DNA of 64,000 bases from Candidatus Omnitrophica bacterium UBA6249 (GCA_002441305.1 DJVT01000009.1:76839-140838), one strand, 5' to 3'. Positions 1 through 24,603 are shown, counted from the stretch's first letter. The notes: generated from the sequence alone by a model not told the origin. Translations and numbers: made by a program.

Positions 1-170
1 AAATAGTAGCAGAAGCAGGGGTTCCTATTCCCGTTTGGCGTCATGGTATTCCGGATGTTTTTACCGAAAGCGGGACACCGGAAGATTTGGAACTTAAATA
101 TAATCTAGATTCTGTTAGCATAGCCAAAAAAGTGCGGGAATGTTTATCTTTACTACCAAAAAGAGTCTAA
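1..170 (+). CDS. 3' end of a transketolase C-terminal-subunit-like (or DXS-like) protein, partial
   Basis: Frame 3 reads ...GIPDVFTESGTPEDLELKYNLDSVSIAKKVRE... to TAA at 168-170. The pattern resembles the C-terminus of the split transketolase subunit at 22156-23073. Confidence 0.4.
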   Translation, partial: IVAEAGVPIPVWRHGIPDVFTESGTPEDLELKYNLDSVSIAKKVRECLSLLPKRV

Positions 171-188
171 AAGTGTTGGAATAATTCA

Positions 189-998
189 ATGAAAATTAAT
201 AATAAAACAGAGATCTGTATTTCGATTGCTCAACATCCTAGTAATTTTGGTGTGACGGTACATAATACAGCCTATGAAAAAATGGGTTTAAATTTTATTT
301 ACAAACCCTTTAAAATAACAGATTTAAGAGGTGCTATCAGGGCTATTAGGGTATTAGGCATTCGTGGCTGTAGCGTAACTATGCCATTTAAGGAAAAAGT
401 TATTAAATATTTAGATAAGCTAGATGTAACTGCATCAGGTGTGGGGGCAGTGAATACAATAGTTAATAATAAAGGGAAGTTGATCGGTTATAACACCGAT
501 GTCTATGGGGCCTTTAGAGTGCTACAAGAATTACGGATTCCTACTAGTAATAGGATTTTAGTGTTGGGGGGAGGTGGTGTAGCAAAGGCAATTTCTTACG
601 CATTGTACAAATTAAATTTCCACAATGTTTTTATGTCCAATCGGACCATAAGAAAAGTTAAGACTATTGCGGAAAAGTTCGGTTATGAAGTGTTGCCTTG
701 GGGTAGACGTAATGATCTTGCGGCGGATATGCTTATAAATGCCACTTCTATTGGGATGGTTTCCCAGGAAAATATGATGCCGGTGTCGAATTCTGCATTA
801 AGAAAATATCATATGGTCATGGATGTTGTTGTTACACCTATACACAGTAGACTGATTAATAAAGCTAAGATGCTAAGAAAAAAGGTTATACCGGGTTATA
901 AAATGAGCTTATATCAGGCTGCAGCCCAATTTGAGTTATATTCTAGGAAAAAGGCTCCTTTGGCAATAATGCAGAAAGCGATATTATCTATGCTTTAG
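189..998 (+). CDS. shikimate 5-dehydrogenase family protein
   Basis: 269 aa. SVTMPFK, GAVNT, GYNTD and VLGGGGVAKA (Rossmann) motifs are typical of the AroE family. Confidence 0.7.
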   Translation: MKINNKTEICISIAQHPSNFGVTVHNTAYEKMGLNFIYKPFKITDLRGAIRAIRVLGIRGCSVTMPFKEKVIKYLDKLDVTASGVGAVNTIVNNKGKLIGYNTDVYGAFRVLQELRIPTSNRILVLGGGGVAKAISYALYKLNFHNVFMSNRTIRKVKTIAEKFGYEVLPWGRRNDLAADMLINATSIGMVSQENMMPVSNSALRKYHMVMDVVVTPIHSRLINKAKMLRKKVIPGYKMSLYQAAAQFELYSRKKAPLAIMQKAILSML

Positions 999-1056
999 AA
1001 TGTCGCTATGTTTTTTTGAGGACTAACTTGTACATTATTCCATTAAACTCCAATAC

Positions 1057-2196
1057 ATGAATATGAAGGTTTCATATACAGAAAGAAAAAATAGTATTAT
1101 CACAGATAAAGGAAACATAGAACGTCTTTACGAATTCAATAATTTTCCTGTATTTATAGGATGTACTGATAAAGATTATAAAGATGATTTATATGCTGAT
1201 ATGATATGGGATATTTGTGTTGATAGCGGCATGATACAATTACATAATCTGTTGTCTGCGGATATTGTCTATTCATCCTATCATTCTGAAGCAGTTGGGG
1301 GAATATGGAAAGAACACCATAATGAATTTAGCAGATTTATTTATAATTTTCATCCAAAGGATGTTCTGGAAATAGGCGGGTCGAATGGCAATCTGGCAAT
1401 TAATTATCTGGAGATACAGAATAATATTAGATCGTGGACTATTATTGAGCCGAATCCCTCCATTAAAAGTAATAAGAAAATAAAGGTTTTAAAAGGATTC
1501 TTCGGCAAGGATACTGTTGTTAATGGTATAGACACAATTGTTATTTCCCATGTACTAGAGCATATTTATGACCCCAATTCTTTCCTGCAAAACATTAATA
1601 GACATATAGAGATAGGTCAGTATCTTATTTTGAGCATCCCTAATTTGCATGTCTATTTACAAAAGAAATTTTCAAATTCTATTAATTTTGAACATACCTA
1701 TTTTTTAACAGAGTATTTCTGTAATTTTTTGTTACTAAAACATGGTTTTGAAATAGAGAAAAAAAGTTATTTTAGGGACCATAGTATTTTTCTTGCAGCC
1801 AAGAAGACAAATATAGAGCAAACACCCGAAACTGTTAATCATTATATAGAAAATAAAAGAATGTATTTAGGAATGGTTAATTATTATACTGAAGAAACTA
1901 AAAGGCTTAATTCGTTGATAGACCAATTTCCCGGGAAAATTTTTTTGTTTGGGGCGCATATTTTTTCTCAATTTTTAATTTATTTAGGACTTAACAGCAG
2001 AAAAATCAGCAACATAATAGATAACTCAGAATTAAAAAATGGCAAGCGCCTTTACGGTACGGAGCTTTATGTAAGAAAACCAGATGTTATAAATATGCAT
2101 GATTCGGTAGCTGTAATTCTAAAAGCTGGACAATATCAGAAGGAAGTTAAAAATCAATTATCTCTTTTAAAAAAAGATGTAGTTATTTGGGAGTAG
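1057..2196 (+). CDS. class I SAM-dependent methyltransferase with C-methyltransferase-type C-terminal domain
   Basis: LEIGGSNGNLA is a SAM motif. The C-terminal segment FLFGAHIFSQFL...DNSELKNGKRLYGTELYV resembles the C-terminal domain of sugar C-methyltransferases. There is no N-terminal Zn ribbon. Confidence 0.55.
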   Translation: MNMKVSYTERKNSIITDKGNIERLYEFNNFPVFIGCTDKDYKDDLYADMIWDICVDSGMIQLHNLLSADIVYSSYHSEAVGGIWKEHHNEFSRFIYNFHPKDVLEIGGSNGNLAINYLEIQNNIRSWTIIEPNPSIKSNKKIKVLKGFFGKDTVVNGIDTIVISHVLEHIYDPNSFLQNINRHIEIGQYLILSIPNLHVYLQKKFSNSINFEHTYFLTEYFCNFLLLKHGFEIEKKSYFRDHSIFLAAKKTNIEQTPETVNHYIENKRMYLGMVNYYTEETKRLNSLIDQFPGKIFLFGAHIFSQFLIYLGLNSRKISNIIDNSELKNGKRLYGTELYVRKPDVINMHDSVAVILKAGQYQKEVKNQLSLLKKDVVIWE

Positions 2197-3506
2197 CCGT
2201 GACTATCTTTTTACACAATCCCCAAAAAATAAATTTTTGGGGCAAGACTGTTCAGGATTGGGTTACGGGTGGTAAGGTAGCTTCTAAATTAGGTTACTTT
2301 CGCGATATTATAAAAAAATATAAAATTTTCATATACTGTGATAATTATGGGTCATCGTTTCCTTTTAACAATTTTGTAAAATCACGCATGTTTTCTAGTT
2401 TGGTGAAATATGTAGAAATATACTTGTGGTTGATTATAAATAACCTTAATCCATTCAGAGTGAAAGTAGTTTTTAATAGACATAGGATCAGGCGATCTGA
2501 TATTCTATTGTCAATTACCCACACTTATTTAGATACTAGGGGAGAAGCTGCAAATGCTTTGCTGGAATTAGATTGTAAGAAACTTCTTTATTTATCTCAT
2601 TACATGTTCTTTCCCTCAGTTATTGCGGAGAATATTATTAGAGGAGATAAATCAATTAAGCTTTTTGCTGAAAATAACCTAAGCAAGAACAGCCTGTTTT
2701 TTAAGAAATATTTTCCTGCCTATAAAGAGGATGTTTATACGCTCCCATTTTTATATCAAGAAAGATTTAAAAAAAATGTTCCATTTTCAAGCAGGAATAA
2801 TAAATGTTTAGCTATAGGCAGTTATCAGACTATAGATATTTACGCAAGCGCTTTTCGGAATATGTATGAATATTTCAAAGTAGATACTTTTCATCCAATG
2901 AGAAAATCTATATACGTTAATAAAGATAAAATAAAAAGATATATAGACTGCTATATTTCATACATTAATGATGATGTTAGAAATGTTTTATCGATGGTAA
3001 AGAGCCCTTCTAAAAATGTATTTAGTAAGGCGTATATAAAAGTTCATAATTATTTTATTCGTAATGTTATGGGTAGCTACACGCGACGTGCTTACTATAA
3101 CTTTGATATTACAAGACTGTATAATCAATATAAGATGATTGTTGTTCCCGAAGAAGTTGTGGATTTACCAGGAATTAGCTTCGTAGAAAGTATGGCGTGC
3201 GGATGTGCTTATTTTGGAATTAAAAGTAATATGTACAAGGATATTGGTTTAATTGATGGAGTGCATTATATTGCGTATGATAATAATTTGGACAGTCTTT
3301 TAGATCTTATTAAATATTATCAAGAGCATAATGACAAGTTAGAGAGAATTGCTGAAAACGGATATGATTTTGTAACGAAGAACTTTTCCAAGAATACAGT
3401 CTCAGAACGGTTTGTAGCCGACCTAAAAAATTTCCAGAACGCACTTATTAAAAACGAGAATAAGGCTGATGAGATTGTATTTGAATCATCATTTTGGTAT
3501 AGATAA
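2187..3506 (+). CDS. glycosyltransferase-like protein (GT1-like C-terminal half)
   Basis: The C-terminal FVESMACGCAYFG...DGVHYIAYD...AENGYDFVTKNFS resembles the GT4/GT1 donor-binding region. The N-terminal half is unrecognised. Start codon is uncertain (TTG). Confidence 0.4.
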   Translation: MGVAVTIFLHNPQKINFWGKTVQDWVTGGKVASKLGYFRDIIKKYKIFIYCDNYGSSFPFNNFVKSRMFSSLVKYVEIYLWLIINNLNPFRVKVVFNRHRIRRSDILLSITHTYLDTRGEAANALLELDCKKLLYLSHYMFFPSVIAENIIRGDKSIKLFAENNLSKNSLFFKKYFPAYKEDVYTLPFLYQERFKKNVPFSSRNNKCLAIGSYQTIDIYASAFRNMYEYFKVDTFHPMRKSIYVNKDKIKRYIDCYISYINDDVRNVLSMVKSPSKNVFSKAYIKVHNYFIRNVMGSYTRRAYYNFDITRLYNQYKMIVVPEEVVDLPGISFVESMACGCAYFGIKSNMYKDIGLIDGVHYIAYDNNLDSLLDLIKYYQEHNDKLERIAENGYDFVTKNFSKNTVSERFVADLKNFQNALIKNENKADEIVFESSFWYR

Positions 3507-4888
3507 TGAGAAAAATAGTAAAGTTATTCTCGTCGATAGGTTTCGATAAGGTTGTATCAGCTAATGTATTCTGCCAAGTAGTTATTTTAGTAACAAGTCC
3601 GGTTACGCTTTATTTCATCGGTACTTCTTTTTCGAGAGAAGCGCAAGGATATTATTATACATTTGCCAGTGTTTTAGGCTTACAAAATTTTTTGGAGCTT
3701 GGTTTTTCTCAGTGTATAGTCAATTTTTCTAGTCATGAATTTGCTAATCTTGAGATTAGAAAAGACGGTGCGCTTAGTGGAGATGGTCGTTCCAAGTCTC
3801 GTTTGATATCTATTATACGTCTTTCTTTGAAATGGTATTCTGCCATAGCAGTGTTTATCATGTTTTTCGTTTGTTTAGGGGGGTATTTTTTCTTTCATTT
3901 TCAAAAAGATTATGGAATTGTTTGGGTAATACCGTGGGTTTGTCTTTGTTTTATTACCGCTGTCAGTATTATATTATTACCGATCGGATCGATCCTTGAA
4001 GGGTGCAATCAATATCTCTGGTTAGCAAACTCCAGAATGTGGACTAAATTGTTTGGTTCCATTGCCCTTTGGATTGCCCTTATTAATGGATTAGGACTTT
4101 ATTCAGCGAGTATTTCTTTAATTGTATCTACGACATTATTTATAATAGCATTTGTTAGGAAGTGGAAGGGTTTAATATTCCAAGTTCTCCATAGCAATAT
4201 AACTCATAGTATATCTTGGATAGACGAAATTTGGCCATTTCAATGGAAGGTAGCTGTAGGTTGGATATGTGGTTTTTTTATTTTTAGCTTGTTTAATCCT
4301 GTTTTATTTGCTTTCCAGGGAGCAATAGTGGCTGGGCAAATGGGGATGACGTGGGCTATAACTTCCAGCTTAAACGGCATGGCAAACATATGGACAAACA
4401 CCAAAGCTTCTAAATTCGGAATATATGTTGCAAAAAGAAATAACAAAGACTTAGATTCTCTTTGGTTGAAGTCTACTATTCAATCTGTTTTAATCTGTTT
4501 GATAGGTTCTGTCGTAGTAATTTTGATAATAATGTTTATCAAAAAACACTATCTTATCGGGGAACGATTTCTTGGAATTAGCGAAATCTTAATTTTATGT
4601 TTTGCTAGTGTTGTGAATCAAGTGATTTTTTCTGAGAATTTGTATCTGCGTGCACACCAAAGAGAGCCGTTGTTGTTAGTTTTTGTATTTAATGCTTTTT
4701 TTACGGGCTTAGCAGTTTATTTATTCGGAAGATACCTCAATGTATTTGCAGTCTGTGCATCTTACGCGTTTTTCTTAACTTTAAGCGCATTTTTTTCCAC
4801 GATTATTTTTATTAAGCATAGAAAAAAATGGTCGCAGTCATATTATAAATATTCCCTTTCTAGAAATTATGAATTGTCGTATATGTGA
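3506..4888 (+). CDS. polytopic membrane protein, possible polysaccharide flippase (Wzx/MOP-like)
   Basis: 460 aa with about 12 hydrophobic segments, sitting in a glycan locus. No diagnostic motif recognised. Confidence 0.3.
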   Translation: MRKIVKLFSSIGFDKVVSANVFCQVVILVTSPVTLYFIGTSFSREAQGYYYTFASVLGLQNFLELGFSQCIVNFSSHEFANLEIRKDGALSGDGRSKSRLISIIRLSLKWYSAIAVFIMFFVCLGGYFFFHFQKDYGIVWVIPWVCLCFITAVSIILLPIGSILEGCNQYLWLANSRMWTKLFGSIALWIALINGLGLYSASISLIVSTTLFIIAFVRKWKGLIFQVLHSNITHSISWIDEIWPFQWKVAVGWICGFFIFSLFNPVLFAFQGAIVAGQMGMTWAITSSLNGMANIWTNTKASKFGIYVAKRNNKDLDSLWLKSTIQSVLICLIGSVVVILIIMFIKKHYLIGERFLGISEILILCFASVVNQVIFSENLYLRAHQREPLLLVFVFNAFFTGLAVYLFGRYLNVFAVCASYAFFLTLSAFFSTIIFIKHRKKWSQSYYKYSLSRNYELSYM

Positions 4889-6071
4889 TTCTCAAAATCT
4901 GGAACTCGCCGTTGATTTAGGTAAACACCCATGGGCGAATAATTTTCTATCTAAAGAACAGCTGGGAAAGGAAATCTTCTATCCTCTGCGAGTAATGTAT
5001 TGCCGCGATTGCCATACCGCGCAGCTTGATTATACCGTTCCCAAAGAGACAATGTTCGGGGATCATACGTATCTTTCAGGAATTACGAGGTCACTTAGCG
5101 AGCATTTTAGGGCTGTCTCCGAAGATGCGGATAACCGTTTCTTTAAGGAAGCCGATGGGAAGAGTGTTCTTGATATAGGTTCTAATGATGGAACTCAACT
5201 TAAGCATTATAAAGCCCTTGGCTATTACGTTTTGGGGGTGGAGTCTTCTAAGACGGTTGCCAAGATTGCCAATGATTCCGGGATAGACACACTTAACAAA
5301 TTCTTTAATTTCGAATTGGCAAGATCCTTAGGGAGAAAATTTGACATCATTAACGCTTCCGGCGTGTTTTTCCATTTGGAGGAACTGCATTCAGTAACTG
5401 AAGGGATAAGGGAGGCTTTAAAAGAAGATGGTGTATTTATCGTGCAGTTCCTGTATATGAAAAAGATTGTGGAAAATCTCGCTTTTGACCAGATCTATCA
5501 TGAGCATTTGCTTTATTACAATTTGAATACGATTGAAATATTATTGAACAAGCACGGATTGGCGATGTTTGATGCCTATATTTCCCCTATACACGGCGGC
5601 TCGGTAGTCGGATTCGTGTCTCATCGAGGCAAGAGGGGTGTTTCCCAGAGGTTGCGTGCTTTAAGAGAGGATGAAGAGAAGGATGGTGTGAATAGTTTAA
5701 AGGCTTATTTGGATTTTTCTGAACGAATGAAAAAGAAGAAAGAAGATAATCTTGCCTTTTTTGAAACAGCTAAGAAACAAGGGAAGCGGATATTCGGATT
5801 CGGGGCTCCGGTCAAAGGGAATACATTGCTGAATTATTTTGAGATAGGCACCGATCATATTGAATGTTTGGTGGAGAAGAATGAACTGCGCCGCGGTTTA
5901 TATTCTCCCGGCATGCATATCCCTATTGTTATCGAACGGGAATTAAAGGAAATGCCGGATATTTATTATGTTTTAGCGTGGAATTTCAGGAATGAAATAT
6001 TGGCTAATAATAAGAAGTTAATTGACAGGGGGGTTGAGTTTTATTTTCCGGTTAACCCTAAGGAGAATTAG
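4869..6071 (+). CDS. NDP-hexose C-methyltransferase family protein (Zn-ribbon + SAM MTase + C-terminal domain)
   Basis: The N-terminal CRIC...CRDC zinc ribbon, the DIGSNDG SAM motif and the C-terminal FGFGAPVKGNTLLNYF...SPGMHIPIV give the architecture of TylCIII-type sugar C-methyltransferases. Confidence 0.7.
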   Translation: MNCRICDSQNLELAVDLGKHPWANNFLSKEQLGKEIFYPLRVMYCRDCHTAQLDYTVPKETMFGDHTYLSGITRSLSEHFRAVSEDADNRFFKEADGKSVLDIGSNDGTQLKHYKALGYYVLGVESSKTVAKIANDSGIDTLNKFFNFELARSLGRKFDIINASGVFFHLEELHSVTEGIREALKEDGVFIVQFLYMKKIVENLAFDQIYHEHLLYYNLNTIEILLNKHGLAMFDAYISPIHGGSVVGFVSHRGKRGVSQRLRALREDEEKDGVNSLKAYLDFSERMKKKKEDNLAFFETAKKQGKRIFGFGAPVKGNTLLNYFEIGTDHIECLVEKNELRRGLYSPGMHIPIVIERELKEMPDIYYVLAWNFRNEILANNKKLIDRGVEFYFPVNPKEN

Positions 6072-6074
6072 ATA

Positions 6075-6992
6075 ATGGATATATTGATTACAGGGGCGTC
6101 CGGTTTCCTTGGAACGGCATTATGTCGAAAACTTCGTGCGGATGGCCATTCTTTGACAGAGTTGAATTCCGGGAATTGCGACCTGACCAGAGACAATTCA
6201 TTGTCCGGGTTTAACAATAAAAAATATGACCAGATATATCATCTTGCGGCCTGGACGCAGGCGGGTGATTTTTGCCTCCATCATCCAGGCGAACAGTGGG
6301 TTATTAACCAGAAGATTAACACCAATGTTTTAAGCTGGTGGAAAGAGAGCCAGCCGCAGGCAAAGGTGATTTGCATGGGGACAAGCTGTGCTTATGACCC
6401 TGCGCTTCCCTTAAAAGAGGATAATTATTTAAAAGGTAAGCCCATAGATAGTTTATTCGCTTATGCGATGACCAAAAGAATGCTTTATGCGGGGTTGGTG
6501 GCGTTAAATAGGCAATTTGGGCTGAAATACCTTTGCCTTGTCCCATCTACTCTTTACGGGCCGGGTTATCATACTGACGGGCGTCAGATGCACTTTATAT
6601 TTGACCTTATCCGGAAGATACTGCGGGGAAGGGATAAGGGAGAGGAAGTGGTTCTTTGGGGGAGCGGGCATCAAAAAAGAGAGATAGTCTATATCGATGA
6701 TTTTATAGAGGTTATGTTGAGATTGAATAAGATATACGAAAATAAGCTTATCAATGTGGGAGCTGGAAGGGAATTTGCTATTCGCTATTTCGCTAAGACT
6801 ATCTGCGAAATGACCGGTTTCAGCTTTAATAAGATTAAGTTCGACAGGGAAAAATACACTGGCGCTAAATCCAAGTGTCTGAATATAGAAACTTTGAGGA
6901 AAAGGCTTCCAGATTTCAAAATGATTCCTTTAAAGGATGGCATCCAAAAAACAATCAGTTGGTTTGAGGCAAACGAGGGATTGATAAAATGA
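6075..6992 (+). CDS. NAD(P)-dependent sugar epimerase/reductase (GDP-L-fucose-synthase-like SDR)
   Basis: ITGASGFLG is a Rossmann motif and YAMTKRM is the YxxxK catalytic motif. 305 aa, with RBS aggagaa upstream. Confidence 0.65.
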   Translation: MDILITGASGFLGTALCRKLRADGHSLTELNSGNCDLTRDNSLSGFNNKKYDQIYHLAAWTQAGDFCLHHPGEQWVINQKINTNVLSWWKESQPQAKVICMGTSCAYDPALPLKEDNYLKGKPIDSLFAYAMTKRMLYAGLVALNRQFGLKYLCLVPSTLYGPGYHTDGRQMHFIFDLIRKILRGRDKGEEVVLWGSGHQKREIVYIDDFIEVMLRLNKIYENKLINVGAGREFAIRYFAKTICEMTGFSFNKIKFDREKYTGAKSKCLNIETLRKRLPDFKMIPLKDGIQKTISWFEANEGLIK

Positions 6993-7542
6993 AAGACAAA
7001 CCTTTTTCAAGATTGAGCAAGTTATTGTCCAGTATTAAAACTACTACTTCCGGAAGAAAAGAAATTAATTTCCAAGACGCGGTAGAAAGCATATCAAAAT
7101 TAATTTTAAAAACCAAGAAATCAGGCGGGAAGATAATGATAATCGGTAACGGTGGAAGTGCTTCTATAGCGAGCCATATCGCTCTGATTTATTGAAAAAT
7201 TATGAAATTCCAGCAATGGCTTTCAATGATTCCAGTTTGCTTACTTGTTTAAGCAATGATTTAGGGTATGAGTATGTGTTTTCTGTTCCTATAGGGAAAT
7301 TAGCAAAAAAGAAGGATGTTGTATTTGCCATAAGTAGCTCTGGTAAGTCTAAAAATATATTAAACGCAGTCAGCAAGGCGAAAGAAAAAGGATGCATTTT
7401 AATTTCTTTATCGGGTTTTTCACAGTCAAATCCGCTAAGGGACATGGGAAAGAATAATTTTTATGTGCCAAGTTTTTCTTATGGAGATGTAGAAATTGCC
7501 CATCTTGCGATTTGCCATGCGATAGCAGATTCAATGATTTAA
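6989..7542 (+). pseudogene. SIS-domain phosphoheptose isomerase (GmhA-like), interrupted by a frameshift
   Basis: ORF 6989-7195 ends ...IIGNGGSASIASHIALIY*. A second frame continues DLLKNYEIPAMAFNDSSLLTCLSNDLGYEYVF...ISSSGKSKN...ISLSG. The two frames join as HIAL-DLLKNY if one base is restored near 7184-7186. Confidence 0.6.
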
Positions 7543-7615: not shown

Positions 7616-8278
7616 ATGTTTAAGTTGATTCTTGCGTTATTGTTGAAATCACGGGGAAAGGTTAGTTTTTTAGCTTCAGTGTCTAAAAATGCAAGAATCT
7701 TAGATGTAGGCTGTGGTAATAATTCTCCATTCAAGACTAAAATTCAACGGCCGGATATTTTTTATGTTGGTTTAGATGTGGGCAACTATAATCAGAAGAT
7801 AAACCCTATTATATACGCTGATGAGTATATGGTGGTTTGCCCGGAAGATTTTGTTCCAAAGATTAATTCTTTTAAAGAATCTTTTGATGCAGTTATCAGC
7901 TCCCATAATTTGGAACACTGCGGGGATCAAAAAGATGTTTTGTCCGCAATGTTAAAATCATTGAAGAGTAAAGGTAGGATATTCCTTTCTTTCCCTTGCG
8001 AAGGAAGCATAAATTTTCCTTCTAGAAGGGGTGCCTTAAATTTCTATGATGACCCGACTCACAAAAATGTTCCTGATTTTGATAATACATTAGAGCAAAT
8101 CCGCCTTGGTGGTTTTAATATTGATTTTGCCGCAAGAAGATACCGGCCATTTACATTGGCCGCTGCCGGTTTTATTTTAAATCCTTGTTCCGCTATGCTT
8201 AGATGCAATATTCCTTTTGGTTTAACTTGGGCATATTATGGTTTTGAAAGTATAATCTGGGCTTCCAAGATACACTAA
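7616..8278 (+). CDS. class I SAM-dependent methyltransferase
   Basis: ILDVGCGNN is the SAM motif, and VISSHNLEHC...KGRIFLSFP follows it. Confidence 0.6.
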   Translation: MFKLILALLLKSRGKVSFLASVSKNARILDVGCGNNSPFKTKIQRPDIFYVGLDVGNYNQKINPIIYADEYMVVCPEDFVPKINSFKESFDAVISSHNLEHCGDQKDVLSAMLKSLKSKGRIFLSFPCEGSINFPSRRGALNFYDDPTHKNVPDFDNTLEQIRLGGFNIDFAARRYRPFTLAAAGFILNPCSAMLRCNIPFGLTWAYYGFESIIWASKIH

Positions 8279-8284
8279 TTTATT

Positions 8285-15712: not shown

Positions 15713-15720
15713 GAGGTAAG

Positions 15721-16494: not shown

Positions 16495-16500
16495 TAGTCT

Positions 16501-17484: not shown

Positions 17485-17486
17485 AG

Positions 17487-18227
17487 ATGAAAATTTATTT
17501 TTTAGGTACGAATGGTTGGTATGATACTAAATTAGGCAATACCCTTTGTGTTTTAGTTGAATCTAGCAAAGCTTATGTAATTTTTGATGCGGGGAATGGG
17601 CTGTATAAAATAGATAAATATATCAGGGACAGCCGCCCGATTTATTTATTCTTAAGTCATTTTCATTTGGATCATATTATTGGGTTGCATGTTCTTAATA
17701 AGTTTAATTTTTCTCAGGGGGTTAATGTCTTTGGGCCTAAAGGTGTTAAAGAGATGTTTAAGCTTATAATTAATACGCCATATTCAATGCCGGTTTCTCG
17801 GCTTAAGACAAAAATTAAGATAGCTGAAATCAATAAGAATTCAAGATTTCCGTTTGAAATAAGCTTTAAGAATCTTTTGCATACTACTAAATGCTATGGT
17901 TATTGTTTAAAAGTTGATGGAAAAACAGTAACATTTTGTACTGACACCGGTCCTTGTAGTAGTATTAACGATCTATCTAAGGGGGCTGACCTTTTAATAG
18001 CAGAGTCTTCTTTGCCTCCCGGTAAAACCGATAAGAGTTGGCCGCATCTTAACCCGCAGCAGGCTGCCAGGATAGCCAGGGATGAAAAGGTTAAGAAACT
18101 GGCGTTGGTTCATTTCGATGCTGAGGCGTATAAAAATAATGTAGATAAAGATATCGCTGAGAGAGAGGCAAAAAAAATCTTTAAGGATACTGTATCAATA
18201 AAAGATAACACTTGTTTAAGGATATAG
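17487..18227 (+). CDS. MBL-fold metallo-hydrolase (RNase Z-like)
   Basis: HFHLDHIIGL is the HxHxDH motif, and the C-terminal ALVHFD is also present. Confidence 0.7.
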   Translation: MKIYFLGTNGWYDTKLGNTLCVLVESSKAYVIFDAGNGLYKIDKYIRDSRPIYLFLSHFHLDHIIGLHVLNKFNFSQGVNVFGPKGVKEMFKLIINTPYSMPVSRLKTKIKIAEINKNSRFPFEISFKNLLHTTKCYGYCLKVDGKTVTFCTDTGPCSSINDLSKGADLLIAESSLPPGKTDKSWPHLNPQQAARIARDEKVKKLALVHFDAEAYKNNVDKDIAEREAKKIFKDTVSIKDNTCLRI

Positions 18228-18237
18228 GGGTAGAATT

Positions 18238-19578
18238 TTGAGCAAAATAAAATATGCAATTAAAATTAAGAAAGATATTTTAAAGAAAGTTAAGGAATAT
18301 TATAACTGTATTCATAATAACCCCGCAGAATTCTTCCCGGGTAAGACCCATATTCATTACTCGGGAAGAGTTTTTAATGAAAAAGAGTTACAATATTTAG
18401 TTGATGCTGCATTAGAATTTTGGCTTACCTTTGGAAAGTATTCAGAGGAATTCGAAAAACGTTTTTCCCGGTATTTGGGTGTTCGTTGGGCACTATTGGT
18501 TAATTCCGGATCTTCCGCTAATTTACTAGCTTTTATGGCGTTAACATCTCCTTTGTTAAGACAGCGTCAGATTAAACGGGGTGATGAGGTAATTACAGTT
18601 GCAGCAGGATTTCCTACTACTGTCTCCCCTATTATCCAATATGGCGCAAAGCCGGTTTTTATCGATGTAGATCTGGAAACATTTAACGTTGATGTGAGAA
18701 AATTGGAGAAAGCTCGTTCTTTAAAAACAAAGGCTGTCGTTTTAGCGCATACTTTGGGTAATCCTTTTGATATCAGTGCAGTGAAAAAGTTTTGTATTAA
18801 ACATAAACTTTGGTTAATTGAGGATAATTGTGATGCCTTAGGTTCAAAATACGATGGAAAATTAACAGGAGTTTTTGGTGACATCGGCACAAGTAGTTTT
18901 TATCCACCTCATCATATGACTATGGGGGAAGGCGGGGCAGTTTATACAAATAATGCAGTTTTGCATAAAATACTATTGTCTTTGCGGGATTGGGGCAGGG
19001 ATTGTTGGTGCGGGAGCGGTAAAGATAATACTTGCGGGAAACGTTTTTCCAAACAATTTGGTTCATTGCCTTTTGGTTATGATCATAAATATGTGTATAG
19101 TAATTTTGGCTATAATTTGAGAGCTACAGATTTGCAGGCAGCTATTGGTTGCGCGCAACTTGATAAATTAGACAAATTCGTTAATAGACGCAAACGAAAT
19201 TTTAGGCATATTTATAGCAGGTTATCTTTTTTCGATAAAGTTTTTATTTTACCTAAGAAAACGAATGGCAGTGATCCTTCTTGGTTTGGTTTTTTACTTA
19301 CCTTAAAAGACGGAGTACCCTTTTCAAGAAATGATTTGGTGAAATTTCTGGAATCCAAAAGAATCCAAACCCGTAATTTGTTTGCTGGTAATTTAACCCG
19401 ACATCCCTGTTTCGATTCGCTTGTTAAGGGGAAAGATTATCGTATTGTAGGAAATTTAAAGAATACCGATAAGCTTATGAAGGACAGCTTTTGGTTTGGA
19501 GTCTATCCAGGGTTGAGTTTTGGGCAGATTGAGTATATTGTTGACAACATAAGGAGATTTTTAGTTGAGAGAGTTTGA
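18238..19578 (+). CDS. rfbH: CDP-6-deoxy-4-hexulose 3-dehydrase (E1; RfbH/DdhC/AscC type, PMP and [2Fe-2S] dependent)
   Basis: DegT-fold protein. PPHHMTMGEGG carries His where aminotransferases have the Schiff-base Lys. The Cys pattern is C-X57-C-X1-C-X7-C (NC...DCWCGSGKDNTC). Confidence 0.85.
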   Translation: MSKIKYAIKIKKDILKKVKEYYNCIHNNPAEFFPGKTHIHYSGRVFNEKELQYLVDAALEFWLTFGKYSEEFEKRFSRYLGVRWALLVNSGSSANLLAFMALTSPLLRQRQIKRGDEVITVAAGFPTTVSPIIQYGAKPVFIDVDLETFNVDVRKLEKARSLKTKAVVLAHTLGNPFDISAVKKFCIKHKLWLIEDNCDALGSKYDGKLTGVFGDIGTSSFYPPHHMTMGEGGAVYTNNAVLHKILLSLRDWGRDCWCGSGKDNTCGKRFSKQFGSLPFGYDHKYVYSNFGYNLRATDLQAAIGCAQLDKLDKFVNRRKRNFRHIYSRLSFFDKVFILPKKTNGSDPSWFGFLLTLKDGVPFSRNDLVKFLESKRIQTRNLFAGNLTRHPCFDSLVKGKDYRIVGNLKNTDKLMKDSFWFGVYPGLSFGQIEYIVDNIRRFLVERV

Positions 19579-21343
19579 TGTAAGAGATATTTTTCTTAAG
19601 AGTATTGAAAGTGAATTTGAATTCTTAAAGCAAGAAGCGTCTTTTTCTGGTGCTGTTGCCAAAAGCATAATCTTGCCTAAATCCCTTGGAGTTTTGCTGC
19701 CGATTAACTATGCCCATTCTCAGGATGATTACCTGATTTCTTTACTGGCAAGGTGGCGTGAGGAGAATTATTTTGCTTATCCTACAAGATTTGAAGTAAC
19801 ATTTGATGGTACTAGAAAATGGTTAAATGAACAGGTTTTAGATAATCCTTCCAGGCTATTATTCTTAGTTGTTGATCAACAGGGAAAATGGATTGGGCAT
19901 GTTGGCTTAGCTAACTGTCTGAATGACGATAGATTCATTATGTTGGATAATATTGTAAGAGGGGATAGGGAGCATTCTCCAGGAATTATGAGCGAAGCAG
20001 TTTTAGAATTAACGGAATGGGTCAGAAGGGCATTTATGCCGGGAAAGATTTATTTAAAAGTCCTTGATACTAATAGCCATGCAATTAATTTCTATGAGAG
20101 ATTGGGATTTGTAGAAAATCATCGTATTCCGCTTAAACGCCAGGAAAGAAAAGATGGTTATTCTTATATAGAGAGTACCAGTTCTGCGATAGATTGTTAT
20201 TTTATTGAGATGGTTTTTCCAGAGAATGCTGGATACATCCCGAAAGAAACTATTTTGACAGCAGGTCCGTTTATTTCTTCTCGCGAAGCATCGTATGCAA
20301 ATGATGCAGTACATTTTGGGTGGAATAAGCAATGGAATAAATATCTTTCATCTTTTGAAGAAAAATTTGCGGATTATGTTGGAGTAAAACATGCTATAGC
20401 TACATCTTCGGGGACAGGCGCTTTGCATATAGCTTTGTTGTCCTTGGGGATTGGGCCGGGAGACGAAGTTATTGTTCCAGATTTAACCTGGGTTGCTACA
20501 GGGCAGGTGGTTAATTATGTAGGAGCCATCCCAATTTTTGCTGACGTTCAGAGAGAATCTTGGTGTTTGGACCCGCTTTCTTTTAAAAAAATGATTAGTA
20601 AGCGTACAAAAGCGGTTATTCCTGTTCATTTATATGGGCATCCAGCTAAAATGGACGAAATTATGGAGATTGCCAGGGATAATAAATTATTTGTTATTGA
20701 AGATGCCGCGCCTTCTATTGGTGCGGAATTTGAAGGCAAGCGAACTGGGAGTTTTGGAGATTTTGCAATGTTTAGCTTCCAGGGTGCCAAACTTGTAGTA
20801 ACTGGAGAAGGCGGCATATTGTTGACTGATAATGATAAACTTTATGAACGTGCTCATAAAATATGGGATCAGGGTCGACGTCCGGGAACTTTTTGGATTG
20901 ATGAGGTTGGCTGGAAGTACAAAATGTCAAATATTCAGGCAGCTTTAGGATTGGGTCAACTTGACCATGTTGATCAGTTGGTTATTGCAAAAAGAAAAAT
21001 ATTTGAATGGTACCAAGAATTCCTGGAAGGCTGTGATAAGATTACTTTATTCAAGGAAGCGGCTTGGGCAAAAAGTATATACTGGATGACTAGTATTCTG
21101 CTTAATCCAGGGGTTAAGCTTACTCGTGACGATTTCATTAATGAATTAAAGAAGAAAAAAATTGATACGAGGCCGGTTTTTCCTGCTATTAGCCAGTATG
21201 TATTTTGGCCTAAGAAACAAAAACCGCAGAAAAACGCTTTTGATATTGGAAATTGTGGAATTAATTTACCCAGTGGGGTTTGTTTAAGACGTGAAGAAGT
21301 TAAATATGTGTCTGAAGTTATTAAGAATATTTTGTCAAAGTAA
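19565..21343 (+). CDS. fusion protein: N-terminal GNAT N-acetyltransferase + C-terminal DegT/DnrJ/EryC1-type sugar aminotransferase
   Basis: The N-terminal ~220 aa hold a GNAT core (WIGHVGL...GIMSEAV..HAINFYERLGF). The C-terminal ~365 aa read ATSSGTGALHIAL...FSFQGAKLVVTGEGG, with the Lys present. TTG start overlaps the end of rfbH. Confidence 0.7.
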   Translation: MREFDVRDIFLKSIESEFEFLKQEASFSGAVAKSIILPKSLGVLLPINYAHSQDDYLISLLARWREENYFAYPTRFEVTFDGTRKWLNEQVLDNPSRLLFLVVDQQGKWIGHVGLANCLNDDRFIMLDNIVRGDREHSPGIMSEAVLELTEWVRRAFMPGKIYLKVLDTNSHAINFYERLGFVENHRIPLKRQERKDGYSYIESTSSAIDCYFIEMVFPENAGYIPKETILTAGPFISSREASYANDAVHFGWNKQWNKYLSSFEEKFADYVGVKHAIATSSGTGALHIALLSLGIGPGDEVIVPDLTWVATGQVVNYVGAIPIFADVQRESWCLDPLSFKKMISKRTKAVIPVHLYGHPAKMDEIMEIARDNKLFVIEDAAPSIGAEFEGKRTGSFGDFAMFSFQGAKLVVTGEGGILLTDNDKLYERAHKIWDQGRRPGTFWIDEVGWKYKMSNIQAALGLGQLDHVDQLVIAKRKIFEWYQEFLEGCDKITLFKEAAWAKSIYWMTSILLNPGVKLTRDDFINELKKKKIDTRPVFPAISQYVFWPKKQKPQKNAFDIGNCGINLPSGVCLRREEVKYVSEVIKNILSK

Positions 21344-22159
21344 ATGATTAAATTTAATAATTTAGTAAAATATGCTCAATCTGTTCGAATCAAGGCTCTA
21401 AATTGCGTATATAAAAGCAAGGCCAGCCATATAGGCAGCGGTTTTTCATGTGTGGAATTATTGGTTTATTTATATTCCAGATGGCTTAATGTTTCTCCTA
21501 GTTTAGCAAGGGATCCGAATAGGGATAGGTTTATTTTGAGCAAAGGGCATGCGGCTGCAGTTTATTATGCCATGCTTGCCGAATTTAGCTTTTTTCCAAA
21601 TGAGTGGTTAGATAGATATTGTGAGATTGGCTCTCTTTTGGGCGGACATGTCCAACACAATGTTCCGGGCGTAGAAATTAGCACTGGTTCATTGGGGCAT
21701 GGCTTGCCGATTGCTGTAGGAATGGCTATAGCGGCAAAACGTGCCCAAAAGAAATATCGTATTGCTGTATTGTTATCTGACGGGGAAATGGAATGCGGTT
21801 CTAATTGGGAAGCTTTAAATATGGCAAGTGCTCAGAAATTAGATAATTTAACAGTTATAGTTGATCGTAATGGCTTACAGGCTATGGGATTTACCGAAGA
21901 CATTCTCCCTATGGATAATCTGGAGCAACGAGTAGCTGCTTTTGGCTGTGCGTATAAGTTAATCGATGGGCATAATTTTCAAGACATAGAGTCGGTTTTT
22001 AAACGTACCCCTTTTACTATGGGGAAGCCTTCTGTTATTATAGCAAAAACAATTAAAGGACGGGGAGTAAGTTTTATGGAAAACAAATTGGAATGGCATT
22101 ATCGCTCCCCGGATACTGTTCAGTATGAAGCAGCTATGAAAGAATTAAAGAATATATGA
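21344..22159 (+). CDS. transketolase, N-terminal (PP-binding) subunit
   Basis: SHIGSGFSCVELL, DRFILSKGHAA, TGSLGHGLPIAVGMA and LSDGEMECGSNWEAL..LDNLTVIVDRNG are the ThDP-binding blocks. Confidence 0.85.
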   Translation: MIKFNNLVKYAQSVRIKALNCVYKSKASHIGSGFSCVELLVYLYSRWLNVSPSLARDPNRDRFILSKGHAAAVYYAMLAEFSFFPNEWLDRYCEIGSLLGGHVQHNVPGVEISTGSLGHGLPIAVGMAIAAKRAQKKYRIAVLLSDGEMECGSNWEALNMASAQKLDNLTVIVDRNGLQAMGFTEDILPMDNLEQRVAAFGCAYKLIDGHNFQDIESVFKRTPFTMGKPSVIIAKTIKGRGVSFMENKLEWHYRSPDTVQYEAAMKELKNI

Positions 22160-23073
22160 GGACGGCATTTTTAAAGCGGTTGGTTAATTTAGCGCGTCGA
22201 GATAAACGTATTTGTTTAGTCGTAGGCGATCTTGGTTTTTCCGTTGTTGAGCCATTCATGAATGAGTTTCCCGACAGATTCTTGAACGCCGGGGTTGCAG
22301 AACAATCAATGACTAGTATTGCAACCGGATGGAGCCTTGCAGAAAATAAAACTGTTTTTACTTATAGCCTGGCGAATTTCCCAACTTTACGTTGTCTCGA
22401 ACAGATCCGGAACGATTGTTGTGGGCATAACGCAAATGTGAAGATTATCTCATTGGGGAGTGGAATTACTTATGGGCAGTCGGGCTATTCTCATTTTGCA
22501 GTCGAAGATCTGGCTGTGATGGGGGCGATGCCGAACATGACCATTTTTACTCCCGGAGATCCTTATGAGGCCGAAAAGATAGCAGATTTAGCGTTACAAA
22601 CTCCCGGGCCGGCCTATATCCGCTTAGCGAAGAACGGCGAACGGCGTTTAAGCGATAAAAAATACTCTTTTGGCATTGGAGAGCTCATAGAATACAAAAG
22701 CGGTAAAGATGTTTGTTTGATTGGGATAGGAAGCATTCTATCGGAATGTATGGAAGCTTCAAGATTGATAGAAGGGGATATCTCTCTTGCGGTTTTTGGT
22801 CTACCGGTTTTTAAGCCTGTAAATGAAAACTTAGCGGTAGAAGTTATTCGTAAATTCCCCTATATCGCTACGGTTGAAGAACATTCTTCTTATGGAGGGT
22901 TAGCCAGCGTTGTCGGGGAAATTATGTCCCGAAATAGATTGAATAGCAAGCTTCTGAAATTTGCCTTACCCGAAGGTTTTGATAAGATTGGCAGCCAGCC
23001 AGAATTACGCAGTTCTTGTGGTTTGACTGCAGGACAAATTGCTGAAACGATAAAAAGGGCTATAGATGCCTAA
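22156..23073 (+). CDS. transketolase, C-terminal (pyrimidine-binding) subunit
   Basis: GDLGFSV...FPDRFLNAGVAEQSM, HFAVEDLAVMGAMPNMTIFTPGD. The start overlaps the upstream subunit by 4 nt. Confidence 0.85.
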   Translation: MRTAFLKRLVNLARRDKRICLVVGDLGFSVVEPFMNEFPDRFLNAGVAEQSMTSIATGWSLAENKTVFTYSLANFPTLRCLEQIRNDCCGHNANVKIISLGSGITYGQSGYSHFAVEDLAVMGAMPNMTIFTPGDPYEAEKIADLALQTPGPAYIRLAKNGERRLSDKKYSFGIGELIEYKSGKDVCLIGIGSILSECMEASRLIEGDISLAVFGLPVFKPVNENLAVEVIRKFPYIATVEEHSSYGGLASVVGEIMSRNRLNSKLLKFALPEGFDKIGSQPELRSSCGLTAGQIAETIKRAIDA

Positions 23074-23890
23074 TAAGATCTGTTTAATAGTCGGGACTAA
23101 AAATGAAGCAAACGCTTTACATGCCTTTCTTGAAAAGCATGTTTGGGCTGATGAAATTCTTGTAACGGATTCTTTTAGTACAGATGATACTGCTGAAGTT
23201 TGCCGTGAATATAACAGAACTTATTTTCAGGCACACTTGTCAGGCAATGCGAATGCCCGGCATAATATTGCCATTAAACAATGTATAAGTGATTGGGTTC
23301 TTTTAATCGATCCTGATGAGCTTATTTCAGAAGAGCTAAAAAAAGAAATATTATTTGTTCTAAATAATCAAAAATGTGAATTTTCCGCATTTGAATTTCT
23401 CAGGGTTAATTATTTTATGAATAGGCCATTAAGGCATGGGGGGTGGAGCGGGTATTCATTAAAGATGTTCCGTAAGGGGTGTGTAGAATTTAAAGGTGAT
23501 TCTTATCATGAAAATCCGGTTGTAAATGGGAAAGTCGGTCGCCTTAGAGGAGAAGTTTTACATTATCCTAATCCAAATATACATTGGATAATGGAAAAGT
23601 TTAATTACATCAGTGAATTTGATTTGCAGGGGTACTCCAATCGTTACGGCGTTTTAAGCCCGGGAAGATTCAAGTGGCTATTATTGACAAGGCCTTTGAA
23701 AAATTTCTGGAAATGTTATTTTAAGAAGAAAGGTTATAAAGACGGATTGCATGGTTTTATCTACGCTATGCTTATTTGGGCGCAGGATGTAATCAGGATA
23801 TGTAAATACGGAGAGAAATTTATTATCAAGAACCCTAATCTAGTGCCTCAGGAGAAATTGCCTGATCCCTGGGAGTGTAGGAAAAAATGA
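23066..23890 (+). CDS. glycosyltransferase family 2
   Basis: ILVTDSFSTDDT and LLIDPDE are DxD-type blocks, with WaaE/KdtX-like overall features. Confidence 0.65.
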   Translation: MPNKICLIVGTKNEANALHAFLEKHVWADEILVTDSFSTDDTAEVCREYNRTYFQAHLSGNANARHNIAIKQCISDWVLLIDPDELISEELKKEILFVLNNQKCEFSAFEFLRVNYFMNRPLRHGGWSGYSLKMFRKGCVEFKGDSYHENPVVNGKVGRLRGEVLHYPNPNIHWIMEKFNYISEFDLQGYSNRYGVLSPGRFKWLLLTRPLKNFWKCYFKKKGYKDGLHGFIYAMLIWAQDVIRICKYGEKFIIKNPNLVPQEKLPDPWECRKK

Positions 23891-24603
23891 CTAAAGAACT
23901 GACAACTGGTAATATAAAAGAAGACTATAACCGTATTTATGAAACAAGCGGTATCAGGACGAATTCCGCGTATTACCGTTGGCTGATTAAATTGTTGAAT
24001 CCGCAAAAGGGTGGCAGCCTGCTGGATGTGTCATGCGGAGAAGGGATTTTCTTGAAGGAATTTGCCAGGAGGATTAAGGGCGCGCGGGTGTATGGGCTGG
24101 ATATCTCGGATAAGGCATTAATCAGGTCCAGGAATAATGTGGATTCAGCCGGTTTGGTTAACGCGGACGGGCAGTTTGTGCCTTTTAAGGATGAAGAATT
24201 CGATTATATTACCTGTTTGGGCAGCCTTGAGCATTATCTGGACCCGGAGAAGGGGATGCGGGAGCTATGCAGGGTGGGCAAAGAGGGTGCAATGTTTTGT
24301 ATAGTCCTGCCCAATTCCGTGAGCGTGGATTTCTTGTTGCATGTGGTAAAATATGGGGCAAAGCCTGTGGATGATTTTCAGATTATCGAACGAACTGCTA
24401 CCAGAGAGGAATGGTCGGCTTTGCTTGAGAAAAATGGGTTTAAGATTGTTAAGGTTTATGGTTCTAATCTTTGGCCGGAGTTGTTCCAGGAGGGTAGTTT
24501 TAAAGTAAAATCTTTAGGGAAGTACTTCAGGCGGAAATTGGTAAAAACCTTTTGTCCGGTGAACCTGGCAAGAGAATTTGTCTTTATCTGCAGGAAGAAA
24601 TAA
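23887..24603 (+). CDS. class I SAM-dependent methyltransferase
   Basis: LLDVSCGEGIF is the SAM motif, followed by ITCLGSLEHY. GC content rises from this gene onward. Confidence 0.7.
   Translation: MTKELTTGNIKEDYNRIYETSGIRTNSAYYRWLIKLLNPQKGGSLLDVSCGEGIFLKEFARRIKGARVYGLDISDKALIRSRNNVDSAGLVNADGQFVPFKDEEFDYITCLGSLEHYLDPEKGMRELCRVGKEGAMFCIVLPNSVSVDFLLHVVKYGAKPVDDFQIIERTATREEWSALLEKNGFKIVKVYGSNLWPELFQEGSFKVKSLGKYFRRKLVKTFCPVNLAREFVFICRKK

Follow-up and report, generated by a model that had tools for sequence, protein, structure and literature searches.

Enterobacterial O-antigen clusters (rfb/wb*) encode Wzx/Wzy-dependent pathways, lie between galF and gnd, measure 8-20 kb and have a GC content well under the genome average. 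They are replaced by recombination in their flanks, with flanking genes hitchhiking. Here we analyse a 64,000-nucleotide (nt) stretch of the genome of Candidatus Omnitrophica bacterium UBA6249 (GCA_002441305.1 DJVT01000009.1:76839-140838), hereafter the window, in which an AT-rich block of glycan genes abuts GC-richer glycan genes at about 23.9 kb. This block resembles the enterobacterial clusters in its low GC, its fixed site between conserved flanks, its content of nucleotide-sugar, glycosyltransferase and Wzx/Wzy-like genes, its RfbF/G/H genes and, as we infer, its replacement by flank recombination. It differs from them in belonging to Omnitrophota, in its size of about 29-34 kb, and in directly abutting lipopolysaccharide (LPS)-core genes (heptosyltransferase, ligase-like). 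It further differs in that no Wzz was found with Pfam or NCBIfam, that there are two Wzy_C proteins, and that the right edge lies within a glycosyltransferase gene.

Two other kinds of locus invite comparison. Like genomic islands associated with tRNA and integrase genes, the block has an atypical composition and a content that varies between relatives, but unlike them it yielded no integrase, tRNA or direct repeats in our searches, and both of its edges lie at overlapping gene junctions. Within the same phylum, a hypervariable polysaccharide cassette of about 26 kb, with an O-antigen ligase, a heptosyltransferase and glycosyltransferases, has been described in the genus JAHKAP01 (bioRxiv 10.64898/2026.05.20.726742). 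According to that preprint, the cassette diverges sharply in an otherwise near-identical backbone and is likened to the hypervariable region (HVR) pattern of SAR11; it is on or beside an integrating episome, keeps its gene order at 70-86% nucleotide identity, and has Wzc/Etk and AlgI/J. By that account both loci are surface-polysaccharide cassettes of similar gene types, but in ours relatives differ in the very genes that they carry, there is no adjoining mobile element, and the sequence is identical in all assemblies. The reading that we favour, and hold to be likely, is that the AT-rich block is a hypervariable, O-antigen-like outer-glycan locus of Omnitrophota, a mosaic that is laterally exchanged by recombination in its flanks.

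Composition and authenticity of the AT-rich block

GC per 1-kb interval is 0.30-0.43 over 1-24 kb and 0.41-0.54 (mostly 0.45-0.54) past 24 kb, and the three values counted by hand in a first-pass annotation of the window (0.27, 0.27 and 0.58) were reproduced exactly. At third codon positions (GC3), the 21 genes ending by 23,890 have a per-gene value of 0.341 (standard deviation 0.053, maximum 0.47) and the 33 genes from 23,887 on a value of 0.606 (standard deviation 0.047, minimum 0.49), so that the distributions on the two sides of 23.9 kb do not overlap (Mann-Whitney U=0, p=8e-10). The maximum-likelihood single GC3 step, computed on in-frame third positions, falls at 23,949 (2-lnL support interval 23,925-23,976; log-likelihood gain 712). 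This is less than 60 nt from the 4-nt overlap between a GT2-family glycosyltransferase gene (23066-23890) and a methyltransferase gene (23887-24603), the place at which the annotation had seen the composition change by eye. We also tried raw GC, whose maximum-likelihood step at 25,960 was rejected as the poorer boundary; the genes at 23.9-26.7 kb, including that of a 686-amino-acid (aa) membrane protein, have intermediate GC.

The difference extends beyond third positions. GC1 and GC2 are also lower in the AT-rich island than in the right-hand genes, and amino-acid use follows suit: the fraction of F, Y, M, I, N and K residues (FYMINK) is 0.356 in the island, 0.303 in native glycan genes and 0.284 in housekeeping genes, and that of G, A, R and P residues (GARP) is 0.202, 0.263 and 0.244, respectively. 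Tetranucleotide signatures, computed with pseudocounts, correlate at r = 0.80-0.90 within the island and 0.86-0.93 within native DNA, but only at 0.47-0.81 between island and native DNA. Two intermediate patches had been proposed inside the block. The patch at 4.9-7.0 kb stands (GC3 0.43-0.47 vs 0.27-0.31 in adjoining genes), and that at 21.3-23.1 kb is marginal, with a GC3 of 0.32-0.39 and a raised total GC that stems from codon positions 1 and 2.

The left boundary, which had been placed outside the window, could be located by walking leftward along two loci (L004 and L064, the latter from the contig that also yielded L012) whose sequences show no difference from the window wherever they overlap with it. 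In coordinates continued as negative numbers to the left of the window, a GC3 step lies at -4,860, at an overlapping epimerase/HAD gene junction. With the left edge placed at -4.84 kb, the AT-rich glycan block therefore measures 28,728 nt (-4,840 to 23,890, + strand, with 1-23890 in the window) and has a GC of 0.360. It is preceded by an intermediate block of about 5 kb (-9.84 to -4.83 kb; GC3 0.42-0.52), which encodes a DAO-family oxidoreductase, a GT1 glycosyltransferase, a GHMP kinase, a nucleotidyltransferase and an epimerase. Native genes are reached at -9.86 kb; this left flank (-15.8 to -9.86 kb; GC3 0.56-0.64) contains epimerases, NadE, a 252-aa open reading frame (ORF) and one ORF6N-domain gene (GC3 0.40). 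The whole atypical region, AT-rich and intermediate, thus spans about 33.7 kb and has at least four compositional strata, and both compositional edges coincide with overlapping gene junctions.

So abrupt a step in a sequence of metagenomic source might be an artefact of assembly or binning, a contig of 50% GC having been fused, at about 23.9 kb, with AT-rich DNA from a different organism. We give this explanation practically no weight. Proteins exactly matching those of the window are found on contigs of seven Logan runs (SRR5323233, five of the SRR13427962-71 series, and SRR22315506) and in JGI metagenomes 3300001592 and 3300001594, and all 16 exact-match loci that were fetched are 100% identical to the window, save for a single 1-nt indel in L014. 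Five of these loci, L012-L016, which stem from four Logan runs and one JGI metagenome, extend across the 23.9 kb junction and agree with the window there, and contig SRR13427965_1098 runs from native DNA on the left through the island into native DNA on the right. Because exact-match contigs from separate assemblies cross it, the junction is not chimeric, and in these assemblies the check for a chimeric join that the annotation had proposed found none. Two properties of related loci, introduced below, also speak against a chimera: the GT2/methyltransferase junction is kept with its overlapping stop and start codons in L027, L032 and L051 (the two genes are adjacent without overlap in L037), and the 3′ half of the GT2 gene agrees with the backbone in its relationships.

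The indel in L014 (JGI 3300001592) lies within 3263-4079 of that locus (window ~21344-22160), and splits the transketolase subunit TktN into ORFs of 86 and 203 aa. TktN is intact in all other assemblies, so the indel probably represents no true variant but an error of sequencing or assembly. No strain-level variation was found, as all 16 exact-match loci are identical to the window, which is a weak test in that a single clonal enrichment is a possible source of them. Alternative contexts of the exact junction proteins were sought in other samples, and all contexts were identical.

A fixed chromosomal site with changing contents

The right-hand side of the junction is conserved. The methyltransferase gene (23887-24603, +; GC3 0.52) is the first gene of backbone composition, overlaps the GT2 stop codon by 4 nt, and is 78-82% identical in the closest relatives. 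It is followed by an LPS-core-like block (24616-36609, +) that runs from the 686-aa membrane protein (unk686, 24616-26676) to a monogalactosyldiacylglycerol (MGDG)-synthase-like gene and is syntenic across Omnitrophota. In about 15 Omnitrophota loci the order is unk686, GT2a, GT2b, Wzy_C-3, GT9, ManC, GT9, DegT, GT2 and HAD, followed by MGDG-synthase-like, PriA, Fmt and GalT, and the region upstream of unk686 varies from locus to locus. Relatives of unk686 are present on 15 GTDB contigs, all from uncultured metagenome-assembled genomes (MAGs; 12 Omnitrophota, 2 Deltaproteobacteria and 1 'bacterium'), and on 23 metagenome contigs, with a best identity of 69-70%. A comparison of synteny, as the annotation had advised, thus finds that relatives keep the right-hand block and carry other genes in the low-GC region. 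The AT-rich block occupies a fixed chromosomal site, with this phylum-wide LPS-core-like block on its right and native epimerases and NadE on its left; conservation of the flank is seen in about 15 loci on the right and, on the left, in the ortholog of one epimerase (epim347) in L018.

The four closest relatives are L027 (on the same contig as L033), L032, L037 and L051, whose unk686 proteins are 69-70% identical to that of the window, and all four have the arrangement GT2-methyltransferase-unk686 as in the window. Low-GC DNA lies upstream of the junction in L027, L032 and L051. Upstream and downstream GC are 0.35 vs 0.43 in L051, 0.38 vs 0.43 in L027, and 0.34 vs 0.40 in the more distant L018. 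From the GT2 gene into the methyltransferase gene, GC3 rises from 0.29 to 0.43 in L027, from 0.24 to 0.37 in L032 and from 0.28 to 0.33 in L051, but not in L037 (0.43, 0.41, 0.43). Gene content upstream differs among the window, L051, L027, L037 and L018. For example, L051 (a 475-kb contig; unk686 70%) has genes for a HAD protein, an HpcH aldolase, a C-methyltransferase, two radical-SAM proteins, an epimerase, an FkbM methyltransferase and an RfbH homolog. Since the relatives are low in GC at this site with other genes in place, the low-GC state of the site predates the split between the window and these relatives, and its gene content does not. The first-pass annotation had proposed that the block is a horizontally acquired or rapidly exchanging, serotype-like cassette inserted beside native envelope genes. 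The exchange is supported by the differing content of relatives and by the incongruence between island and backbone described below; a single lineage-specific insertion is not, given that L027, L032 and L051 are already low in GC upstream of the shared junction.

The recurrence of low GC at the equivalent site, in relatives of differing host GC, could alternatively mean that the locus is native and vertically inherited, its low GC being kept by locus-specific forces, such as weak codon selection in genes of low expression or selection for AT, without any lateral exchange. The RfbF homolog of L027 would fit this explanation, as it is 80% identical to that of the window and so matches the backbone identities. 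We consider it improbable nonetheless. The content upstream of the GT2 gene differs between genomes whose backbone proteins are 70%, and even 96-98%, identical, and the compositional shift includes GC1, GC2 and amino-acid use. Moreover, identity matrices (by which, rather than by formal trees, we judged incongruence) are scrambled for RfbH relative to the backbone. The RfbH of the window is 56-57% identical to those of its closest relatives and 59% identical to those of distant Omnitrophota (L017, L020). That of L037 is 72% identical to that of L017 and only 56% identical to that of L027, although the L037 and L027 methyltransferases are 91% identical. In a collection of 5.8 billion proteins, more than 100 RfbH proteins are 65-76% identical to that of the window, all of them closer than the sister-lineage copies; their named sources are Omnitrophota, Victivallaceae, Desulfobacterales, Spirochaetota, Hydrogenimonas and Chlorobium.

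Other enzymes of the island and its flank are likewise 71-77% identical across phyla, in excess of sister-lineage identities. The C-methyltransferase of the island shares 71-75% identity with proteins from many phyla and 80% with that of L062, and, together with the left-flank epimerase, it has homologs with 71-77% identity in Verrucomicrobia, Nitrospirota, cyanobacteria, Bacillota and others. Homologs of these two proteins are often on contigs of equal length (41,522, 242,417, 58,387, 22,883 and 19,939 bp), which are probably shared. For the pairs found in this way (P0127/P0271, P0205/P0274, P0200/P0319, P0174/P0289 and P0239/P0270), which come from MAGs of Nitrospirota, Bacillota and other groups, identity to the window proteins is 73-77%; this points to a widely transferred sugar-modification module kept across phyla.

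Longer stretches of the island can also be followed elsewhere. The segment at 17.9-23.4 kb, which comprises RfbH, the GNAT/DegT fusion, TktN, TktC and a 5′ portion of GT2, has a collinear counterpart in L055 at 74.5% nucleotide and 75-77% amino-acid identity, with a GC3 of 0.27-0.31 there. The same RfbH-to-GT2 module is present at 64-71% amino-acid identity in L058, an Omnitrophota MAG contig, where it lies in another chromosomal context, beside trp genes, with a GC3 of 0.35-0.49. The segment at 3.5-12.2 kb is collinear with L062 (GC 0.337; two extra genes in L062), and amino-acid identity along this alignment changes in steps, from 33% for the flippase to 79-81% for the C-methyltransferase, epimerase and SIS protein and 48-63% for the rest. 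Because its sub-modules match different foreign contigs, with identity steps, the island is a mosaic whose modules each have a history of their own. There would be at least three or four such modules, and at least one gene, that of the SIS isomerase, would have decayed since.

The right edge of the variable region can be placed more exactly by comparing L051 with L032, which are 96-98% identical in unk686 and GT2a. Their GT2 proteins are 63% identical over residues 1-120 and 97% identical over residues 141-274. At the nucleotide level, identity is 50-59% upstream of GT2, the two being unalignable upstream of mid-GT2; it is 68-77% over the 5′ half of GT2 up to the window-equivalent position 23,495, and 94-98% from about 23,550. 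Because identity jumps there, the hypervariable region has its right edge inside GT2 at about 23.5 kb. The boundary at 23.9 kb that the annotation had drawn is thus correct as the compositional step, but the edge of the variable region lies about 450 nt further left. The GT2 of the window follows the same pattern: residues 1-120 are 46-53% identical to those of the closest relatives, 65% identical to L055 and 56% identical to L058, and residues 141-274 are 76-84% identical to the closest relatives, following backbone relationships. GT2 (23066-23890, +) is accordingly a mosaic glycosyltransferase, with an N-terminal part of about 120-140 aa belonging to the variable cassette, a C-terminal half belonging to the backbone, and a probable breakpoint at about 23,450-23,550. 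From about 23.5 kb, GC3 ascends as a ramp (0.27 in the N-terminal part of GT2, 0.39 in its C-terminal part, then 0.52, 0.505, 0.555 and 0.62), which would fit recombination tracts that end at varying points of the flank. A candidate left arm is the native epimerase epim347 at -14.7 to -13.7 kb, whose 74% identical ortholog directly abuts the low-GC region of L018.

Under the reading we favour, low GC and the distinct signature would derive from a laterally exchanged pool of glycan modules with about 34-37% GC, unlike the 50% GC background of the host; this range resembles that of many Omnitrophota genomes. Diversification, which probably proceeds by recombination in the conserved flanks, would consist of module replacement through homologous recombination in conserved flanking sequence, with a right-hand arm starting at about 23.5 kb, within the 3′ half of GT2, and site-specific integration would play no role in it.

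The remaining alternative is a classical genomic island, with the recent arrival of all 29-34 kb in one step from one low-GC donor. The strongly unameliorated composition (GC3 0.34 vs 0.61) and the tightly packed, co-directional genes are what this would predict, and so is the distribution of a repeat found in the native DNA. This bipartite element, a repeat family of about 50 nt, has the consensus TATTTCTTTTGTAAC, about 20 variable nt, and GTTACATAAACTGTCTAC, with an internal TGTAAC/GTTACA inverted repeat. Ten half-elements lie between 30,254 and 59,305, where 0.04 are expected by chance. Three are on the - strand (30254-30303, 31768-31817 and 45016-45065) and seven on the + strand (30323-30383, 31839-31899, 32996-33056, 35462-35522, 45088-45148, 52016-52076 and 59245-59305). 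Cores of the element also lie in the left flank at -14,807, -13,687 and -13,373 (L064 965(+), 2085(-) and 2399(+)), and one core motif is present in the relative L027 (69% identity; 16660(-)). As the annotation had noted, the element is missing from the island: there is none in 1-30,253, nor in the 9.8 kb atypical stretch to the left of the window. The element is thus on both native sides of the atypical region, which fits a foreign origin. The absence of the element from the island is confounded with operon-like packing, because the island has only three intergenic spacers of at least 30 nt. In native DNA, the - copies lie at or just past stop codons, the + copies end a few nt ahead of start codons, and inverted pairs fill the intergenic spacer at three sites. 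The element had no match in Rfam, and as a sigma-70 promoter it was rejected from its sequence, its boxes being about 24 nt apart.

Marks of integration are another matter. The annotation had seen no integrase, tRNA or direct repeats at the right boundary, and this was borne out when both edges were examined: scans for tRNA and tmRNA in the window and left flank found none, Rfam at gathering thresholds gave no match in the window, no integrase domain occurs in any gene of the window or any called gene of the left flank, and direct or inverted repeats shared between the two block edges are absent at 12 nt or more, with nothing above chance. An acquisition event could be linked with the ORF6N-domain (PF10543) gene about 15 kb left of the window (L064 405-917, window -15367 to -14855), which has a GC3 of 0.40 in native DNA of GC3 0.56-0.64 and has a bipartite core just downstream. 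This is the only gene of a mobile-element type near the locus, and about 10 kb separate it from the AT-rich block on its right, and about 5 kb from the atypical region as a whole. Considering in addition the four or more strata, the sub-blocks with different nearest relatives and identity steps, and the already low GC at the site in L027, L032 and L051, with RfbH and GT2 homologs upstream of the equivalent junction, we regard a single acquisition as unlikely.

Several observations nevertheless weigh against exchange of an O-antigen-like cassette by flank recombination. Every assembly of the source organism is identical across the island, and because of this 'rapid' exchange can be judged only by comparing species with one another. 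Nothing near-identical was found that could be a donor; at best, foreign sequences match with 76-80% amino-acid and about 75% nucleotide identity. Low GC at the equivalent site in relatives is compatible with locus-specific selection for AT-richness as well. The identity gradient along GT2 partly reflects intrinsic conservation of its C-terminal domain, and the left homology arm has its counterpart in a single relative, L018. Finally, the product glycan and the assignments as polymerase or ligase follow from family membership only.

Predicted pathway and neighbouring genes

Gene functions were taken from profile searches with Pfam and NCBIfam, which agree with the content of a Wzy-type locus as first described (an initiating transferase, a flippase-like gene, two polymerase/ligase-like genes, nucleotide-sugar genes and methyltransferases). 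The block would encode a Wzx/Wzy-dependent pathway with an initiating phosphoglycosyltransferase, a flippase-like protein, two Wzy_C proteins, four or five glycosyltransferases and several nucleotide-sugar modules. Dedicated nucleotide-sugar synthesis genes and glycosyltransferases (GT1-like, GT9, WecG and GT2) are present, and all features of the window described in this paragraph and the next two lie on the + strand. In the initial part of the window, a shikimate-dehydrogenase-like oxidoreductase (189-998; Pfam, and NCBIfam at 244.7 bits, just below the 252-bit cutoff) comes after a SIS gene and a split-transketolase set that are situated immediately to the left of the window. Downstream of it lie a methyltransferase (1057-2196; Pfam Methyltransf_23), a soluble GT1-like glycosyltransferase (2187-3506; Pfam, without transmembrane (TM)-like segments) and a putative Wzx-type O-unit flippase (3506-4888). 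The last has nine TM-like segments, no Pfam match and an NCBIfam WZX_like match of E=8e-15 (55 bits vs a cutoff of 300), and is only 33% identical to its positional counterpart in L062. The sub-block of higher GC3 (4869-6992; 0.43-0.47) encodes a sugar C-methyltransferase and an SDR epimerase/reductase (Pfam, NCBIfam). Next is the gene that had been recognised as frameshifted, a pseudogene for a SIS (GmhA-like sugar-phosphate isomerase) protein (6989-7542) with a 1-nt deletion near 7184. When one base is restored there, it gives an ORF of 184 aa that is collinear with the intact 192-aa gene of L062. The window sequence of this gene recurs unchanged in L004, L006 and L007, whose gene calls show equally split ORFs, and there is another SIS gene, an intact one, about 9 kb further upstream.

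Further along are a methyltransferase (7616-8278; Pfam, 63% identical to L062), a GT9 (heptosyltransferase-family) glycosyltransferase (8285-9340; Pfam, with NCBIfam matches under cutoffs) and a first Wzy_C-domain membrane protein of the polymerase/ligase family (9327-10724; Pfam, eight TM-like segments). The adjoining 495-aa polytopic membrane protein (10714-12201; eight TM-like segments) has a 48% identical homolog at the equivalent position in L062, and matched nothing in Pfam, in NCBIfam or, at E<=1, in a PDB sequence search. Then come a WecG/TagA/CpsF-family glycosyltransferase (12255-13043; Pfam, NCBIfam), the initiating polyprenyl-phosphate glycosylphosphotransferase (13069-14463; Pfam Bac_transf E=1e-63, and TIGR03025 at 374 bits with a cutoff of 296) and a second Wzy_C-domain membrane protein (14465-15712; Pfam, nine TM-like segments). 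The Wzy_C domain does not separate polymerases from ligases, and the third, conserved Wzy_C gene (28100-29335) would be the likelier ligase. Neither a Wzz/polysaccharide co-polymerase (PCP) nor a Wza/Wzc domain was found with Pfam or NCBIfam in all window genes and the called genes up to 15.8 kb to the left, and no ABC transporter was seen in the Pfam/NCBIfam annotation of the block.

The right-hand part of the block is occupied by genes for nucleotide-sugar synthesis. These are RfbF glucose-1-phosphate cytidylyltransferase and a CDP-glucose 4,6-dehydratase-like SDR (15721-17484; NCBIfam), a metallo-beta-lactamase (MBL)-fold protein (17487-18227; Pfam, NCBIfam), RfbH (CDP-6-deoxy-D-xylo-4-hexulose-3-dehydrase, 18238-19578; NCBIfam NF011936 at 708 bits, cutoff 423), a fusion of a GNAT acetyltransferase with a DegT/LegC-like aminotransferase (19565-21343; Pfam, NCBIfam; 75% identical to L055 and 66% to L058), and a split transketolase with N- and C-terminal subunits (21344-23073; Pfam, NCBIfam; collinear in L055 and L058). 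RfbF scores 415 bits with TIGR02623, above the cutoff of 300, and the 4,6-dehydratase-like SDR 219 bits with TIGR02622, below the cutoff of 278. In the CDP-3,6-dideoxyhexose and yersiniose pathways of Salmonella and Yersinia, DdhA/B/C correspond to RfbF/G/H and are joined by YerE, a thiamine diphosphate (ThDP) enzyme. Our genes resemble these pathways in that RfbF and RfbH exceed NCBIfam equivalog cutoffs and a ThDP-dependent enzyme follows RfbH; in the related locus L056, the position after RfbH is taken by a 601-aa TPP_enzyme-family protein that resembles YerE. Unlike in these pathways, the ThDP enzyme of the window is a split transketolase, the aminotransferase-GNAT fusion and MBL-fold protein are interposed, and no RfbI/E3 reductase was identified with Pfam or NCBIfam. 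The module (RfbF, 4,6-dehydratase, RfbH) would thus make a CDP-3,6-dideoxyhexose, elaborated by the aminotransferase-acetyltransferase fusion and the split transketolase.

The island has two split-transketolase pairs, one on the left (region L004 7592-10810, equivalent to window -2220 to 998) and one at 21344-23073, which reach only 38-41% identity with homologs from other places. Ahead of the left pair come a SIS gene, a 527-aa NTP_transf_3-like protein and a HAD gene, and behind it the shikimate-dehydrogenase-like gene; this set may form a pathway for an unusual higher-carbon or branched sugar.

Some features of the right-hand side also deserve mention. The 686-aa protein, with about 10 TM-like segments, stands at the head of the LPS-core-like block at 34-70% identity in the 15 GTDB MAG and 23 metagenome contigs. 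It belongs to no Pfam family and had no match in a PDB sequence search at E<=1. Its sole family signal is a faint NCBIfam LIC_10190 match (22 bits), and it may be an uncharacterised GT-C-like glycosyltransferase or polymerase. Tandem GalT/HIT (galactose-1-phosphate uridylyltransferase-like) paralogs at 39460-40482 and 40484-41485 share a 73-nt stretch of 78% identity, and both are kept in L028. A 164-aa ORF at 56884-57378 matches no family and has an unusual GC2, 0.55, so that it may be no true gene. The longest recA ORF (57458-58597) starts at a TTG 56 codons ahead of the Pfam RecA match, the true start probably being downstream of it. At the recA/recX boundary lie three tandem 42-nt units that are 93-100% identical (58594-58721); the 135.5-kb Logan contig SRR5323233_6 stops at about this repeat, which suggests that it breaks short-read assemblies.

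Implications for the surface of Omnitrophota

As a type, the locus is an ordinary, well-documented one, a hypervariable surface-glycan locus. It shows the familiar pattern of a serotype locus and changes no concept, and extends the O-antigen/HVR paradigm to a little-studied phylum. Within that phylum, it maps where variability in surface glycans sits, with its compositional edges, core block, shared modules and intragenic recombination edge. Three conserved anchors could help in recovering and typing glycan cassettes from metagenomes, namely the methyltransferase, the 686-aa membrane protein and, of GT2, its 3′ half.

We can also entertain a broader proposal, namely that GT2 is a recurrently re-assorted chimera, that a cassette pool of about 35% GC is shared phylum-wide, and that the CDP-linked dideoxy sugar is novel. 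Taken jointly, these three statements are speculative, and we think it rather doubtful that all of them hold. GT2 enzymes, which have a GT-A fold, bind the nucleotide sugar with their N-terminal domain. If the first statement is true, this domain would be swapped along with the upstream sugar-synthesis module, and the C-terminal half would act as homology arm, which would couple donor specificity to exchange. If the third is true, the module of RfbFGH, aminotransferase/GNAT and split transketolase would make a CDP-linked dideoxy sugar that has not yet been described.

The uncultured bacteria of the Omnitrophota are for the most part ultra-small, and some live as epibionts or predators; the cell surface probably has a central role when they attach to hosts and escape phages. 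If the second statement is true, the pool of cassettes would be independent of host GC (43-50%) and might move on episomes, and it could vary the surface of these ultra-small, possibly epibiotic cells.

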